Positions 15,601 to 46,180 of a stretch of DNA of 64,000 nt are shown piece after piece. The translations under genes and the position numbers were made by a program. Source of the DNA: Lytechinus pictus. Taxonomy: Eukaryota. The DNA lies in assembly GCF_037042905.1 (NCBI RefSeq), contig NC_087251.1:22384001-22448000 (forward strand), written 5' to 3'. Below the pieces are notes generated by a model. The model saw nothing but the letters and a program-made list of their open reading frames with translations, did no database searches and was not told the origin of the DNA. The number at the start of each line of letters is the position of its first letter. The stretch's first letter is position 1.

Positions 15601-18600
15601 GAATACTTATATGGTGCTTCTCGAAACCCCATGGACCGTGATGGACGCACATGATATCTACTCGTCAATGGATGCACCCCTCCCCCTCCCTCACGAAAAT
15701 ATTGGGGGTGCTTCAGCAGGGCTATACTGTGGGGCCCTAATATACGTGCGTGGAATATTAATTAAGAGGAAACCCTGATCATATTTTTTTTATAAGCAGG
15801 GGTGGCGGGGGGCCTTAAATTCCCCGTAGGAAAAACAAAATGGAAAGTGCTATTTCTTCAAAATGAAATGTGCCCTTTAAAGACCCTTTTCAAAATGAAA
15901 TATCCTTTTTGAAGTATAATACAAAATATATTTTCGGTTCCAAAATCGCACATTTTTAGCTCGCGCTTTGCGCTCGTATCAACTATGTTTAGTAAAGCCC
16001 CTTTCACAATTGACGTATTACCATTTGCGACCTTTGGTCGGCTGCAACAGGCATCAATTGCTATTCATCTCATAAGATCGCACAGAGGCTTTCACAAATG
16101 CAAAAGCTGTCGTCAGTGGCGTACCTGTGATTTTTCACAGGGGGGGGCAAAACCGTCCGCCAAAAAATTTGACAAGGCAAAAAAAAAAAAAAAGGTCTTC
16201 AATCACAAATGTACGGAGCCCGGGAAGGGACTTGGTAAAAATATTTTTATCTCGTTAAAACGAGATAGTTATCTCGTTTTAATGAGATAGCATCTCGTTA
16301 AAACGACATAGTATCTCGTTTTAATGAGATAGTATCTCGTTAAAACGACATAGTATCTCGTTAAAACGAGATAACTATCTCATTAAAACGAGATACTATG
16401 TCGTTTTAACGAGATACTATCTCATTAAAACGAGATAACTATCTCGTTTTAACGAGATACTATGTCGTTTTAACGAGATACTATCTCATTAAAACGAGAT
16501 ACTATGTCGTTTTAACGAGATACTATCTCATTAAAACGAGATAACTATCTCGTTTTAACGAGATAAAAATATTTTTACCATGTCCCTTCCCGGGCTCCGT
16601 AGAAACCACAACCTTAGAAGAGTTTAATTTAAACCCGAATTCAGTATACGTAATTTGTTGAGGGAGGAATGCCCTTACCCTATTTTCTCTAGGTTTTATT
16701 TCGGAAAAGTTTGATTTGTGTTATAAAAGACAAAATTATAAAATTATCTTGCCCTTTTAATTTCGTGCAGTTTATATTACAATTTTTATTATTTTTTCTG
16801 CCCTCTTTTATTTATTCTTAACCCCTATTTTGTAATACCGAGGAACGGTCGCATACATGCAAATGCAACGGTAGCGCAATGTTGTAAGCCGTGTTGCGAT
16901 CGGTCTTGCAACAGTCTTATTGCCTATATTATAATCGCACCCAGTCGCAAGACTGGTCTCTATAGATCGCTAGCACATGTGCAACTGTTGTACGACCTCC
17001 AGTCGACTAAGTTCAGATGCGACCAGTCACGACCATCGCGAGTTCGTGCGATCGTCTACAACGACTGCGAGTACTCGCAAGACACCAAGAGATCGATCGT
17101 GCAATAAGAAAAAACTGTTGCAGGCGGTCGTAAACTGGACGTATACGTCAATTTTGAAAGGTGCTTAAAGCCCCTTTCACAATTGACGTACGACCTGTTT
17201 ACGACCACCTGCAACAGTTTTTTGTTGTTGTTGCACGATCGATCCCTTGGTGTCTTGCGAGCACTCGCAGTCGTTGTAGACGATCGCACAAACTCGAGGT
17301 GGTCGGAGGTGATCGAGAGGTGGCACAACTAAGTATAGTCGCATTTACTCGACTGGAGGTCGTACAACACTTGCACATGTGCTGGAGACCGTACAGAGAC
17401 CAGTCTTGCGACTGGTTGCGATAATACGAGACTGTTGCAAGACCGATTGGAATTTACGGCCTACTATTTTCCACTACCGTTGCATTAACATGTATGCGAC
17501 CGTTCAGCCCCTTTCACAATTATCGTCCGACCAGTTTACGACCGCCTGCAACAGTTTTTTCATGTTGTTGCACGATCGATCTCTTGGTGTCTTGCGAGCA
17601 CTCGCAGTCGTTGTAGACGGTCGCACGAACTCGAGGTGGTCGCGACTGGTCACATCTGAACTTTGAACATGTTCAAAATCCGAACGCGATCAAATACGAT
17701 CGATTCACTCGCATCAGGCCGTACCCGTGGTCGTACCATCGGTCGGGCGATCATCGTGCGAGTGTTGTTCAACGTTGTACGACTTGGTGCGAGAGGTGGC
17801 ACAACTAAGTAGTCGCATTTACTTGACTGGAGGTCGTGCAACACTTGCACATGTGCAAGCGACCTACATGTACAGAGACCTGTCTTGCGACTGGTTGCGA
17901 TAATAATATGGGCCATAAGACTGTTGGAAGACCGATCGCAACGGCTTACAACATTGCACTACCGTTTCATTCGCATGTATGCGACCGTTCCACTCGCAAT
18001 CTCTCGTGCAACACTCGCATGTGATCGCACGAGCACAATAAGAGCGCGCCACAACTGGGCGTTGTGGCGTGCGCCTGTAATCCAAGCTGTGGGGAAGTTA
18101 CAAATTGATGCAGAGGTTCGAGGTTCGAGCCCTGGTCACGTCTTTCGGATGGTGACGTTAAAGGTCGGTCCCAGACGTAAATAATCATATCTGATTGATA
18201 CACGTCTGACAAAACTCAAATACACACAGAGCATATGCGACTTACTCGTGCAATGGGGTTTACTGGTTGTTTTTGTTGTACGACAGCTGTTGCAACTGTG
18301 AAAGCCTCTGTGCGATCTTATGAGATGACTAGCGATTGATGCCTGTTGCAGCCTGTCGCACGACCAAAAGGTCGCAAATGGTCGTACGTCAATTGTGAAA
18401 GGGGCTTTAGGTACTCGATGTTCTTGGTTATAAAATGTGCTCAGAATTTTCAGTTTTTAAGTTGGAATATCACAAGTTTTTGGCTCGCATCAATTATTGT
18501 TTAGTGAGGTACTCTACATGTTCTTGGTTACAAAAAGTGCTTAGAATGTCCAGTTTTCATATGGGAATATCACGAATTTTCATCTTGCTCTTCATACTTG

Positions 18601-37206: not shown

Positions 37207-37830
37207 GTATATATTGTAAACTGTCCAGGGGGTCTAAAGTAAGTAAAAGAGTTGTAAACATTGACTTTTATATTTAACATGTTCAGTTGATAAAATGCAA
37301 ACAAATAGCATAAATATAAATGCAATTTAGCAGAATCTTAGGATTCAAAAGGAGGTGGGTCAATCAAGTACAATAAAGACATAATGTTTGAGAGTCAACG
37401 GACCCCTCTGTAATACTATTCAGTTCATTTTATTTTCATTCAGCATTGACACAAGGAAAGGAATTGGACTTGATCTATATCTTTCAGTGCGACATTTGAA
37501 TTGTGTCAGCATATTACTACTGTTATTTCGCAAATTCCATCTAGTCTCCCCTCTTTCCTTAGGGAGCCAGTGGCGGAAAGTGTCAGACTTCAAGAGGGAT
37601 TCGCCAAATTTGAGACAGGTTTCGTTGCGTCTTATCTCTAAGGTCTCGAGGTTGGTTTGCTGGAGTGCGCTTTCGTATGATTGATAAGAATATCCTAGGA
37701 TCAATTTAAGTACTCTCTTTTGGACTCTTTCAATGGCAGAAGTGTGTGATTTAGTTAGGCTAGGATGCCAAACGGGTACGCCATATTCTAGTAGCGGGCG
37801 AATGTATCCTTTGTAGATCAAGACAAGATC
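37207..37830 (-). mobile_element. 3' fragment of an L2/CR1-group LINE ORF2 plus 3' UTR
   Basis: ORF 37420-37821 YIRPLLEYGVPVWHPSLTK...IERVQKR...RNETCLKF is a typical post-RT C-terminus. Confidence 0.8.
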
Positions 37831-40484
37831 TTGGCCGAGTCACTCCTTCAGGAACTTGTCCATGCGATGCTGAGAACTTCGCTTGAACTTCCTCATAGCA
37901 ATCCATCTCGTAGGAAAAGGGGGAGGTCAGAATGGACTGGGGAAGTTTCAGAAGCCTATCAAGCAGCTCTTAAAGGATGGAGGCAGTGGAAGAAGGCAGG
38001 AAAACCCAAGAGCACTGAGATCCATGAGATGTACCTGAGATACAAGAAAGCATTCAGGAGTAAATTCCGTCAGTCAAGAGCTCAGCAGCATAGAAGGCTT
38101 CTTACTAGTATTGAGCATGCATCCAAAGCCAATACAAAGCTCTTCCATCACCTGATAAAGAAGCAGCGCCCTGAGAAGAGCAAACAACTTCAAACTGACA
38201 AGCTTCAGTATGATGGAAAGGCATTCCAAGGGGATGCGATGCTTGATGGATGGAAACAGTACTTCATGGATCTGGCTCAAGCACCCCAGGAAAACAGCGT
38301 AGATCTGCATTCCCTTGAAACTGGCCATCATGAAAACAAAGAGTATTTGTCATCTATGCTAGCCCTCGTCATCACATCAGATGAGCTGGATGAGGCTATA
38401 AGTAGTCTCCAAAAGGGGAAAGCAAGTGGGCTAGATGAAATAACAGAGCATATACAAAACCTTGGAGAAACTGCTATGAGACTACTACTCTTAATATTCA
38501 ATGTGTTCCTGACTAATGCACACACCCCACTTAGTCTTAAGAGTGGAATTGTGATTCCAATCCATAAGGGCAAAGGCAAGAGCATCCAGGACCCCAAGAA
38601 CTACAGGGGAATAACCATAACCTCTTCACTCTGCAAGCTACTGGAATTGGTATTGAAGCCTCATCTTGAGCTTTCACTTCACCTGAGTGACATCCCGGAT
38701 GAACTCCAGTTTGGTTTTCGGAAACAACACCCTTGCATCCTCACATCACCCTGCCTGGAACTGATCATTGAGCTTAACAGCAACAACAACCAGCCTACCT
38801 TTGTGGCATTATTAGACGCAGAGAAAGCTTTTTATAAAGTTTGGCATGAGGGATTATTCCAGAAATTAGATGCATCATACATCCATCCACAGTTTGTTCA
38901 CATGATCAGGTCTTTATACAATGATCTTCACAGCCAGGTCCTTTGGGATGGGTTCATTAGTGAGCCCTTCTATATAGAGCAGGGAGTTAGACAAGGGGGA
39001 GTCCTATCTCCGCTACTCGGTATTCATCGACGACCTGATGAAAGTCCTCCGGGAAAATAACTTGGGGTGCAACCTTCTGGATAGGTATTCCGGCCTCCTC
39101 GTCCTAGCAGATGACGTCGCACTGATCAGCTCATCACCGAGTGAACTACATGAGATGTTGAATGTTACCAACAGCTACGCCAAAAGTTGGAGGTACAAGA
39201 TCAACCCTAATAAAAGCTGTGTAGTACCTTCCAACAATAAGGGTAAACATGCAATTCAGCTCCCGTCATGGAATCTCGGAAGTGACACAGTAACGACATC
39301 TTCCTGTCATCCACATCTTGGCATCATAAAATCAAGTGACAAGAGAGACCCAGCAGAAAAGATCATCTCGAAAGGCATACAAACTTTCTATGCGCTTACA
39401 GGAAGCGGAGCATACACAGGAGGCCTTCTACCACAACACTGTGCATCCCTGTGGAAGGTCTATTGCATCCCTCGTATGCTCTATGAAGCAGCAGTATTAC
39501 ACCTCACGAAAGGGATGGAGAAAAGACTTGATCAGGCACAACATCAGCTGTTCAAGCAAATCCTTGGTCTGCCTAGAACAGCAGCAGATGAGGTTGTCTT
39601 TCTTCTCACTAGGCTCCTTCCTCTTCGTTCTCAAGTTGACCTTGAGAAGCTCCTCCTGATTGGACAAGCACTGGATCTCCCCCACACCAGATTTGAGTAT
39701 AGGACTCTTCTGCATGCTGTAGCCAAGACTACCCCCACTATCAAGTCCTGGCAGCTCATCTTGGACAAGTATAATCTCCCTGACCTTCACTCTCTTCTGC
39801 TCAAACCATCTCCTACATCACTTGGAAGAAGATCTCAAATAGGGCAGTTACAAACAAGATTTAAGATGAGGTACTGGCTGCTATTCAATCAAAATCTACT
39901 CTTTCGCTGTGGAGGAACATAGATATACCAGCGTCAAACGCACTATACCCCAGCTCCAGTAGCTCCCAGTTTCTTAGACGAGCTGTTGTCATCAGGTCAC
40001 ATCTAGTGAGTCAGACCTATCCAACTCAGTGCAGGCTAGTTTTGATAAAGAAGGCTACTTCTCCAACGTGTCGCCTATGTCATCAAGGTGATGAAGACAC
40101 CATCCACTTCATAGCTAGCTGTCATGTGTTTGACACTCAGCGTGATGAACTCCAAGTGGAAGTGAGAAAATTAGGCCTTCCTGCATCAATCTGCTCCTTA
40201 TTTTGCCAAGACTGCTGTGGAGACTATGCTAAGTCCATTCTATCACCTGTCCATCCAAAACTATCTTCTTCCATGCAAGACAAGCTGACTTCTAAACTCT
40301 TACTCTTCCTGCACAAAATCCACATCTTTCGTACCTCCTTTCTCTCTTGAATGTGTAAATGCAGTATATCACCGATGCCTATTCTACTCTGAGGAAGTGC
40401 TTTGTGCTCTTTGATTATTTATGCAACAATACAGCAACCAGCTGTAGATCTCCGGGATCAGCGGAGGAAGAAGAAGAAGAAGAA
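37831..40484 (+). mobile_element. 5'-truncated, frameshifted non-LTR retrotransposon (RTEX/Proto2-like RT with CCHC finger)
   Basis: RT motifs NYRGITITS, QFGFR, LDAEKAF, GVRQGGVLSP, LADD; C-terminal CRLC-x8-H-x4-C; (GAA)n tail ~40466-40484; frameshifts near 39018 and 39815 and an internal stop; no endonuclease domain. Confidence 0.9.
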
Positions 40485-43775: not shown

Positions 43776-44645
43776 GCGCGTTTCCGTTTTACACCCTGGC
43801 GAAGGCATTTTCCGCAAAAATAGCCACAAAGCGACTAGTGAAGAGTCTACTCACGTCGCTGGTTGCAGCGTGCGACACAGGCGAGCCCCACACCACCGCA
43901 TGCAATCTGCACAGTTACTGATCATATCAGAGCATAGAGTTCCTCGGCACTTCATGTTCAGAGAGCAGTCATATGGGGTCATATGAGTGAAATCCGAACA
44001 TGCTTTTGCAGTTACGTTTTTTTAATGAAAAGTTATGAAAAAGTTTTTTTTCTAAATATAAATTATTAACTAAATGAATAGAATGACAGACAAAATATAA
44101 ATAAAAATAAACAGATACATATAATAGAAAGAAAATTGAAGTTTGATGGATTGATACACTTAGATGCCGAAAGATAGATATAGAAGACTGATAAATAGAT
44201 ATAGACATAGATAGATAGAAGTAGAGAGAGAGAGAGAAAGACAGAGAGATGGATAGATAGATAGATAGATAGATGGGGGGGGGAGAGAACTTGAGAGATG
44301 GAGAGATGTTATAGATAGATAGATAGATAGATATATGGACGGATAAAAATAAATAGAGAGAGAGAGAAAAAAAGACAGACAGATGGATAGATAGAGAGAG
44401 AAAGAGAGAGAGAGAGAGAGAATCTGAGAGATAGATAGATGTTAGATAGATATAGATAAAGAATGAGAGAGACAGAGAAGATAGACAAATTAACAGATAA
44501 ATAGATACTGTAGTTACATAGATAGATAGAAGATAGATAGATGGGGGGGGGGGAACTTGAGAGAGGGAGAGATGTTATAGATAGATAGATAGATATATAT
44601 GGACGGAAAAAGAGAAATAGAGAAAGAGAGAAAACAAGACAGATG

Positions 44646-44679
<34 letters not shown>

Positions 44680-46180
44680 GGGAGAGAGATAGAGAGAGAT
44701 AGATAGATAAAGAATGAGAGAGACAGAGAAGATTAACAGATAGATAGATCATGTAGATACTGTAGTTACATAGATAGATAGAGATAGAATTTGAGAGATA
44801 GATAAATAAATAGATAGAAGATTGATAGAGAGAGAGAGAACTAGAGAAATACAGATGGATAGATAGAGAGGGAGAGAGAGAGACAGAGAAGATTAATAGA
44901 TAGATACTGTAGTCACATATAGATAGATAGATAGATAGATATATAATTTGAGAGATAGATGCATAGACGGATAGAGAGAAAAAGACAGACAGATGGATAG
45001 ATAGATAGAGAGAGAGAATTTGAGAGACAGACAGACAGATAGATAGAGAGAATTCGAGAGATAGATAGACGGATAGAGAGAAACAGAGAGAGAGAAAAAG
45101 ACAGACAGATGGATAGATAGAGAGAATTTGAGATATATATATATATATATTGGATTTTATTGCAATAAAAACTATCAAAATACAATCACAAGCAGTCAAA
45201 GACTGAAATAAGTGAATGTTTACATACAAATAGAATCATAATTAAATATAAAGTAAACATTATAAATACATATCAAATACAATACAAATTCATACAGATA
45301 AAAAGAAATGTATCATAAATAAATACAAAAGGCCAAAAGTAAAGTGTCACCAAAGAAGAAAAAAGCGGAATGAAAGATTAAGAAGAAAGAGGTGAGAGAA
45401 GGGAAAGAAATTGGGATAAGACAAAGAGAAGGGAAAGCAAGAGGTGGAATTTGAAAGAGAATAGGAGGCAACCTTCAGAAGAAAAAAAAACTCATTATGC
45501 AATACAAGACATTTAACAATGGTAACAAGTAAATAAAGTAGTAATTAAATCGAATTGAGCACAAAAAAGGGAATAGTAGAGCTGAGGAAATAGACTCCCG
45601 AAGGAAGTCGAAGCAGTGTTGATATTGCACATGAGTAGATTAACATATGGATAGAGAGAAATAAAAGAGAGACAGATGGATAGATAGAGAATTTGAGAGA
45701 TAGATTTTAGATGGATAGATAGATAGAGAATGAGAGAGACAGAGTAGATAGACAAATTAACAGATAGATATATCATGTAGTACCATAGATTGATTTATAA
45801 CATAGATAGTGGATAGACAGATATGATAGATATAAGGATAGATATAATATGAAAAAAAGTAATTATGTGTTTTATTTTTCAATATTTTAGCTATTATTCG
45901 TTTTCATTCATATAAACGATCATGTGCGATAAAGTAAAAAAAAATCATGAAGCCAACGTATATAGTTCAGCGGAACAACCAAAATACAGAGACTGAAGCT
46001 TTTGGTCTATAAGCTCAGCTGCATTTGCACGTATGTTCTGCGGATATCTTCGGTGCGGACTTTTGGATCGCGCTCAGCTGATTATGTAGACAAAGTAACG
46101 TAGACGTAGACTCTTCACTAGTCGCTTTGTGGCTATTTTTCCGGAAAATGCCTTCGCCAGGGTGTAAAACGGAAACGCAC
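43776..46180. mobile_element. Non-autonomous Mutator-like element (MULE) with (GATA)n/(GA)n interior
   Basis: ~75-bp TIRs starting with G; 9-bp TSD cgccggatg at 43767-43775 and 46181-46189; empty site at ~41531-41539. Confidence 0.85.
44150..45845. repeat. Compound (GATA)n/(GA)n simple-repeat tract
   Basis: Directly visible; interrupted by a non-repetitive block at ~45150-45635. Confidence 0.9.

Follow-up and report, generated by a model that had tools for sequence, protein, structure and literature searches.

The stretch analysed here (the window) comprises 64,000 nucleotides (nt) from a sea urchin's genome, that of Lytechinus pictus, namely positions 22,384,001 to 22,448,000 of contig 7 (NC_087251.1 of assembly GCF_037042905.1). 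Inside a longer repeat with terminal inverted repeats it carries a 174-nt element whose first 46 nt match the beginning of 7SL RNA, the RNA of the signal recognition particle (SRP). The element is with high probability a copy of a young, non-autonomous family of short interspersed elements (SINEs) with about 1,400-1,500 members. Its features are listed in Table 1. The searches of the whole assembly reported below covered 812 Mb.

Insertion site and copies of the element

The boundaries of the insertion were obtained by comparison with paralogues of the surrounding host repeat. In 11 of 11 other fetched copies the site is empty and reads uninterrupted as ...aataAGAGCatatg..., whereas the window reads ...aataAGAGC at the same site, followed by gcgccaca, the 174-nt element and AGAGCatatg.... 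The insertion therefore occupies exactly 18046-18227, and AGAGC is the target duplication, which upholds the position and sequence of the 182-bp insert with agagc duplications and a CA tail that a preliminary description had reported. The 182 bp consist of 8 extra bases and the element proper, which starts at 18054 (ACTGGGCG). Because 7 of the 8 extra bases (GCGCCACA) are the reverse complement of element nt 10-16, they may be the product of a snap-back or a template jump. Locus L002 has a comparable inverted 9-mer, and additional 5′ bases are likewise present in the copies L016, L028 and L030. The host repeat (about 17165-18410 minus 18046-18227) shows TTA-type flanks and internal inverted subrepeats. 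A search of the assembly with its left flank returned 1,113 first-look candidates, and of 40 scored copies 39, that is all except the window's own, were 99% identical; the host repeat is thus itself very young and abundant.

Table 1. The element, its parts and its insertion site, with positions numbered from the first base of the window.
Feature	Position	Strand	Basis
Host repeat, about 1.06 kb without the insert, with terminal inverted repeats	17165..18410	.	Flank search and paralogues
Left target-site duplication AGAGC, 5 bp	18041..18045	+	Single AGAGC in 11/11 empty-site paralogues
8 extra bases GCGCCACA at the 5′ junction	18046..18053	+	Found neither at the empty site nor in the family consensus
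7SL-derived head, nt 1-46	18054..18099	+	Rfam RF00017; alignment to host 7SL; fold
A-box-like segment TGGCGTGCGCC, putative box A of RNA polymerase III (Pol III)	18065..18075	+	Read from the sequence
Linker and B-box region, nt 47-81	18100..18134	+	No significant 7SL similarity, no transfer RNA (tRNA) call
Perfect Pol III box B GGTTCGAGCCC	18122..18132	+	Sequence match
Central piece, nt 82-124	18135..18177	+	By-eye alignment to the Deu part of BivaMD-SINE1
3′ hairpin CAGACGT...ACGTCTG with inner stem, nt 119-155	18172..18208	+	Minimum-energy and centroid folds
3′ tail ACAAAACTCAAATAC and (AC)n, 3 AC units in the window copy	18209..18227	+	Comparison of copies
Right target-site duplication AGAGC	18228..18232	+	Empty-site comparison

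A search of the assembly with the 174-nt element yielded 1,689 first-look candidates on many contigs. Among 40 scored copies, 24 showed 100% and 16 showed 99% identity; the 24 identical ones, the window's own included, matched over nt 1-174 (17 copies), 2-174 (3 copies) or 3-174 (4 copies). In pattern counts allowing up to 3 mismatches, the 50-nt junction between head and body was found at 410 places and its reversed control at none, the first 100 junction matches listed all being free of mismatches. A 28-nt pattern of the head occurred at 1,432 places, 7 of which are true 7SL genes, and a 34-nt stretch of the body (nt 92-125) at 1,491 places. As the counts for head and body are nearly equal, the body is practically always joined to the 7SL head and no second large family possesses it. 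Flanks were unrelated between copies on many contigs. The sequence is hence a dispersed family rather than a one-off chimera, with at least 1,400 copies that share the junction between 7SL and body and differ in flanks and duplications. In length (174 nt, below 1 kb) and in its interspersed, non-tandem distribution over many contigs the family agrees with the formal definition of a SINE in SINEBase, as worded in the accessible text of PMC3531059. It is probably still active.

The copies bear the marks of retrotransposition. In 29 copies, target duplications ranged from none detectable up to 13-14 bp and the (AC)n run extended 0 to 22 bases beyond the consensus end. Most copies start at element nt 1 and a few are 1-2 nt shorter; several have 8-15 additional bases at the 5′ junction, and a minority forms head-to-tail arrays, such as the four copies in L001. 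Variable duplications, (AC)n ends, extra 5′ bases and arrays together indicate target-primed reverse transcription mediated by a long interspersed element (LINE), and they fit a LINE specific for the 3′ end of its template, not copying of the L1 type from a poly(A) tail. Arrays of 2-4 copies were located at L001:1329-2033, at L039:1501-1867 and on contig 7 at about 25.357 and 25.366 Mb. Their joints consist of (AC)n plus CTTA or TA, and the arrangement suggests insertion into the tail of a resident copy.

Some copies have themselves been disrupted. Two independent ones, L053 on contig 6 and L072 on contig 3, are split at the same 8-bp site CACGTCTG (nt 148-155) by inserts of hAT-like appearance, with termini CAGYGG...CCACTG and an 8-bp duplication, and the copies in L065 and L077 are also interrupted in the tail region. 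A decayed, internally duplicated fragment resembling SINE nt ~13-73 lies at L016:270-340, and about 50 bp downstream of it stands a distinct SINE head of tRNA-like type, in which A- and B-box-like motifs are clear. Among sequencing runs, 14 contained every sampled word of the element; all derive from one organism, and for 9 of them the source DNA itself may have been sequenced. In six RNA runs with other labels (metagenomes of sea urchin, echinoderm, marine, estuary and fish type) only 3-4 of 14 words were present, a figure uninformative on range or expression.

The 7SL-derived head and the 7SL genes of the host

The Rfam model Metazoa_SRP (RF00017) aligned 18054-18098, corresponding to nt 1-45, with model positions 1-44 at 31.2 bits (E=7.3e-7), so that element nt 1 falls on model position 1. 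The score lies below the 70-bit gathering score of the model, as expected for a 45-nt fragment, and with model positions 1-44 alone covered the element is neither a full-length SRP RNA gene nor a retropseudogene of one by that threshold. Counted in the RF00017 alignment, 34 of 44 positions are identical to the Rfam consensus. A 27-nt motif of the head occurs once in the window, the number expected from 100 shuffles being 0.

The same model identified seven full-length 7SL genes in the host at 272-283 bits; contigs 1 and 10 hold three each, and contig 12 holds one. Over its first 31 nt the element is identical to them at 30 positions, a closer fit than to a general 7SL consensus. An older subfamily of the SINE (e.g. 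L038) matches a canonical host 7SL gene at 38/40 positions, and both subfamilies match the variant 7SL gene L037 on contig 12 in 42/46 columns. Element and variant gene also have in common a paired change in helix 2, in which C3-G is replaced by U3-A. The aligned structure comprises three pairs that close helix 2, the hairpins of helices 3 and 4 and the UGUAAU turn, 2 of its pairs being non-canonical, and the 46-nt head folded alone forms the same two hairpins as nt 1-45 of host 7SL. Judged from sequence and alignment, nt 1-46 are the 5′ domain of the Alu part of SRP RNA in its full extent, derived from the host's own 7SL and starting at the 7SL 5′ end. The 7SL-like head of the preliminary description is thereby confirmed in model and host genes alike; helices 2, 3 and 4 and the turn could be aligned, and in the youngest subfamily the loop that makes one loop-loop contact is shortened.

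In 64 near-full-length copies nt 1-30 are near-invariant and the loop is variable, and nt 23-46, which contain the turn, helix 4 and the helix 2 strand, are retained in all subfamilies. A continuation of 7SL homology past nt 46 was ruled out: nt 47-174 aligned to 7SL nt 45-300 with scores of 13-15 at a shuffle mean of about 15, and when the whole RF00017 model was forced onto the element, the columns of helix 5 were mostly mismatched or non-canonical. Relative to the SINEBase threshold of at least 60% identity to tRNA, 5S ribosomal RNA or 7SL RNA over at least 60 nt, the head reaches 42/46 and by eye about 45/60, the extra 14 nt being no better than chance. Fold z-scores were -0.89 for the whole element, +0.92 for the 46-nt head and -0.5 to -0.1 for genuine 7SL 5′ domains, and are uninformative.

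The host 7SL genes have features of their own. An upstream block of the form GATATnTCCTTAATTTCGC, lying roughly between -35 and -15, is common to all seven (L031-L037). In six (L031-L036) a B-box-like GGTTCGAGTC follows 15-45 nt after the T-run; the variant L037 does not have it. The combination suggests a two-part host 7SL promoter made up of the upstream element and the downstream B box. Each of the three tandem 7SL genes on contig 10 (about 7.91-7.92 Mb) is accompanied by an older SINE copy in the same orientation, 81-91% identical (L031:1290-1458, L035:1294-1462 and L036:1315-1462; a further copy lies at L031:877-1045). The (AC)n tails of these copies stop some 35 bp before the 7SL start, bordering directly on the upstream promoter block, and the SINE together with its upstream flank is included in the duplicated 7SL unit.

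Body and tail of the element

The linker and B-box region contains a perfect match to the Pol III box B, whose consensus is GGTTCGANNCC. In the subfamily of the window copy the B box is preceded by a 7-nt internal duplication, GTTCGAG, which many copies lack. By eye, nt 47-81 resemble a mollusc SINE in that part of its tRNA head which covers the variable loop and T arm (supplement of PMC4824008), and the region is possibly the 3′ half of a tRNA. Of a tRNA-derived (SINE2) head the element shows just the B box and a T-arm-like stretch, the position of the A box being occupied by 7SL sequence. The tRNA 3′ half proposed in the preliminary description accordingly stands as regards the perfect B box and the by-eye likeness, and did not find agreement from the tRNA prediction programs considered below. 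A derivation of the region from DNA downstream of the host 7SL genes was not established, as scores of 18-23 compare with null maxima of 20-24 and it is mostly the B box that aligns.

To the central piece we could assign a partial likeness to a known domain. Four short words of the body were searched in the supplement of the MetaSINE paper (PMC4824008), and one matched the BivaMD-SINE1 consensus. The series GGTCACG-TCTTTCGGATG-..AC.TTAAA-...GGTCCC of the element is collinear with the segment that follows the 66-bp Meta domain, and about 30/42 columns agree by eye with the consensus sequences from four species, the 11-mer included. This segment is named the Deu (Nin) domain by the authors in the available part of PMC4824008, and its first ~45 nt are the part called Inv by others, according to the sections of PMC5804259 at hand. 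The alignment supports a resemblance of nt 82-124 to the 5′ start of a Deu/Nin ('Inv'-like) domain. The likeness to the Deu central domain suggested earlier extends over its first ~45 nt only. Of a motif located more downstream in the Nin domain of molluscs the genome has next to no copies (6 matches versus 2 for the reversed control).

The 3′ end consists of the predicted hairpin, which is a candidate for being recognised by a partner LINE's reverse transcriptase, and of the (AC)n tail.

Proposed working, alternatives and significance

The element can be divided into four modules: the 7SL 5′ domain, the linker with the B box, the Deu/Nin-like piece of ~45 nt, and the hairpin with the (AC)n tail. 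Pol III would start at nt 1, directed by the A-box-like TGGCGTGCGCC, which we take by analogy with Alu to be box A, and by the B box about 57 nt downstream; on sequence grounds the 7SL head very probably supplies the promoter. As there is no run of four T inside the element, transcripts would terminate in the flank. A 'stringent' LINE would then read the 3′ hairpin and (AC)n tail and copy the RNA into a nicked target. The outcome would be target duplications of variable length, often short or missing, together with occasional 5′ additions and copies arranged head to tail. In addition, the head might be bound by SRP9/14 and tether the RNA to ribosomes, in the way proposed for Alu; by this analogy the role is quite conceivable, and we hold it tentatively. 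The strategy as a whole, an Alu-like one in an invertebrate, in which the 46-nt 5′ domain recruits SRP9/14, reaches ribosomes and captures the reverse transcriptase of a tail-recognising LINE other than L1, would then be a possible and still rather doubtful reading.

As to its origin, the family may have arisen when a reverse transcriptase copying the RNA of an older tRNA/Nin-type SINE switched to 7SL RNA at about nt 46 and ran off at the 5′ end, which would explain why the element begins at the 7SL start. Template switching from SINE RNA to 5S ribosomal RNA (rRNA) was put forward, in the text of PMC4824008 that could be accessed, for vertebrate SINEs composed of 5S, partial tRNA and Deu parts, whose architecture is parallel. 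The insertion of a 5′-truncated SINE into a 7SL gene at nt 46 would lead to the same product.

Several results weigh against this scheme. Concerning the binding of SRP9/14, the alignment shows that the 3′ strand of 7SL (helix 5), present in all known 7SL SINEs, is absent here; the folding energy of the head is no better than that of shuffles, as also applies to the genuine 7SL 5′ domain; and in the youngest subfamily, which includes the window copy, the helix-4 loop that makes one loop-loop contact of the Alu domain is shortened from AGCUACGUGG to AAGCUGUGG, and one C is lost. Concerning the tRNA-type ancestor, ARAGORN found no tRNA in the element, the Rfam tRNA model gave nothing at E<=10, and body and tail pattern searches of the assembly revealed no tRNA-headed parent family. 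A 7SL-type upstream promoter block was present in 0 of 71 sampled copies, hence no master locus was recognised among them. Concerning the partner, the patterns required the tail or body and forbade the element's own upstream bases, with boundaries at about nt 140, 120, 80 and 45; they matched 0, 44, 164, 212 and 172 places in the assembly. Among the matches fetched or listed there was no partner LINE. The sampled matches were indel variants, 5′-truncated copies, copies split by insertions or copies inside larger repeats, and no reverse-transcriptase frame was found upstream of 13 tail-only loci. Pfam analysis of 12 of the 13 long frames of fetched loci (L077:1723-2340 left out) detected RVT_1 only in L056, where the frame is oriented opposite to the SINE, and in a LINE of the window, which was rejected as partner since it ends in (GAA)n without similarity to the SINE tail.

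This LINE is a non-LTR reverse-transcriptase gene in two overlapping frames at 37795-39922 on the plus strand (RVT_1, E=1.5e-18 and 8.9e-7); its (GAA)n run lies ~550 bp downstream of the frames, near 40470. The long low-complexity frames at 43969-45235 on the minus strand, with repeats rich in serine, leucine and isoleucine, are probably simple-sequence DNA and not a gene. Outside the window, at L093/L099 (contig 12) and L098/L100 (contig 3), SINE nt 81-174 are fused to ~130 nt of unrelated sequence that is in part palindromic. A second family sharing the body was considered here and rejected: L093 and L098 are 80% identical over ~225 bp only, and the shared stretch has neither tRNA features nor a frame, so that the unit is possibly a composite repeat with a captured SINE fragment. 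A GIY-YIG (Penelope-like) frame is located 1.8 kb upstream in L100.

The main alternative, to which we attach nearly even chances, is that the 7SL piece serves only as Pol III promoter and start module, in place of the tRNA 5′ half with its A box, that neither SRP9/14 nor ribosome docking is involved, and that the element moves by its 3′ hairpin and tail as would any SINE dependent on a stringent LINE. SINEs with LINE-derived tails in principle need no docking at ribosomes. With the break at nt 46, the spacing between the A-box-like segment and the perfect B box is a workable one, and the absence of the 3′ half of the Alu domain is just as readily accommodated as the altered helix-4 loop of the youngest and most successful subfamily. 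With a B-box-like GGTTCGAGTC past the terminator in six of seven host 7SL genes, the SINE may even recreate their A-plus-B layout in compact form. What a mere promoter module explains less well is the extent of the retained piece, which ends not just after the A box but after the helix-2 closing strand, at the exact end of the self-contained 5′ domain, and whose nt 23-46, outside box A, were kept in all subfamilies. The very same 46-nt unit is described, in the accessible part of PMC11760393, as the minimal portion of human Alu that binds SRP9/14 and is competent for retrotransposition. These points argue for the SRP9/14 role.

Doubt may also be raised about the assignment of the body and about novelty. 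That the Deu/Nin and tRNA likenesses are coincidental, and that the 7SL head is followed by a lineage-specific body of other or LINE origin and a LINE tail as in the hagfish SINE1, appears unlikely to us: the short match of ~45 nt was made by eye against mollusc sequences, the downstream Nin motif barely exceeds its reversed control and no tRNA model matched, but a 6-mer, an 11-mer, a 5-mer and a 6-mer are collinear exactly at the Deu start in all four BivaMD-SINE1 consensus sequences, and Nin, Deu and Inv domains are on record for echinoderms (PMC5804259, in the part available). Automated repeat libraries exist for most sequenced genomes. Repbase or Dfam could already list the family for the host or one of its urchin relatives, perhaps under the tRNA-type SINE2 elements; the present work would then be at most a rediscovery with a corrected head. 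Sea-urchin SINEs have indeed been curated since 2005, with SINE2-1 to -6_SP, SP-4 and SP-5 mentioned in what is accessible of PMC4824008 and PMC4758252. We nevertheless judge earlier cataloguing to be quite improbable, because the listed sea-urchin SINEs are all described there as tRNA-derived, two specialist papers, one by the curator of Repbase (2020) and one by the SINEBase group (February 2026), in their accessible text, restrict 7SL-derived SINEs to supraprimates, hagfish and shrew mole (PMC7245038, PMC13023118), and a 7SL-headed SINE from a sea urchin or other echinoderm is absent from the searchable literature.

Returning to the reading as an independent 7SL-headed SINE, its place among known systems can be given as follows. 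Kojima 2020 (PMC7245038), in the portion available, knew 7SL-derived SINEs from supraprimates and then from hagfish only, and Kosushkin et al. 2026 (PMC13023118), likewise in the portion available, states the same restriction with the addition of the shrew mole. The searchable literature contains no 7SL-derived SINE from a sea urchin, another echinoderm or any other invertebrate, Repbase, Dfam and SINEBase being outside the comparison, and five 16-18-mers of the element do not occur in the searchable papers. To this extent the earlier statement that none is known in echinoderms remains valid, and its proposal of an independent 7SL-headed family gains support from the copy number, the match to host 7SL and the junction-sharing copies with different flanks.

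With Alu and B1, the supraprimate SINE1 and the shrew-mole Urop the element shares a head that begins at the first base of 7SL and contains helix 3, the UGUAAU turn and helix 4, as well as an internal A-box-like Pol III segment followed by a B box. All known 7SL SINEs, Alu, B1 and Urop included, arose after a central deletion of ~183 nt that kept both 7SL ends (PMC13023118, accessible sections), whereas nt 1-46 alone are present here; of the two marks of a SINE1, the element thus has the 7SL-derived 5′ head and not both 7SL ends. The supraprimate families and Urop depend on L1, which mobilises them by way of a poly(A) tail, in contrast to the hairpin and (AC)n tail found here, and as the head comes from the host's own 7SL, the origin is independent of these families. 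The hagfish SINE1-1_EBu is similar in being young, 7SL-headed and non-mammalian, with a tail for a LINE other than L1 and a microsatellite-like end (PMC7245038, as far as accessible), and in its family size of 2,363 copies; it differs in retaining the 7SL 3′ region with an Alu-like deletion boundary (both after the accessible text of PMC13023118) and in having an identified RTE partner. Unlike it, the element of the sea urchin has no 7SL 3′ part, possesses an added B-box module and the Deu/Nin-like piece, and resides in an invertebrate. The SINE3 and AmnSINE1 type of DeuSINEs follows the same composite plan, joining the promoter end of one small Pol III RNA to a tRNA-like 3′ part and a Deu-type domain, but there the grafted RNA is 5S rRNA, whereas here it is 7SL, and the Deu/Nin domain is represented here by no more than its first ~45 nt. 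SINE2-3_SP (a Deu/Nin SINE) and the other SINE2-n_SP families, probably from the same host group, have a Deu/Nin-type central domain, and an L2-type tail is reported for SINE2-6_SP in the part of PMC4824008 available. They are described as tRNA-headed and are set apart from the present element by these descriptions only. Set against the literature only, the element is an independent and structurally new 7SL-headed SINE.

Origins of SINEs from 7SL are rare; those of the supraprimates, the hagfish and, in 2026, the shrew mole all involve the same central deletion, as far as the accessible accounts go. The family described here would be a further independent origin, the first in an invertebrate and the first to keep the 5′ domain only, and it bears on the questions of why 7SL is seldom recruited and which portion of the Alu domain is important for mobility. 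Because the family is small, young and near-uniform, it should be easy to find its master copies, its partner LINE and polymorphic insertions. The host is a model of experimental embryology, for which RNA injections and binding assays are standard practice. If SRP9/14 is indeed bound, the head would correspond in nature to the minimal Alu domain of 46 nt that was delimited by deletions in human cells, and docking at ribosomes would aid SINEs generally, regardless of the clade of their LINE.

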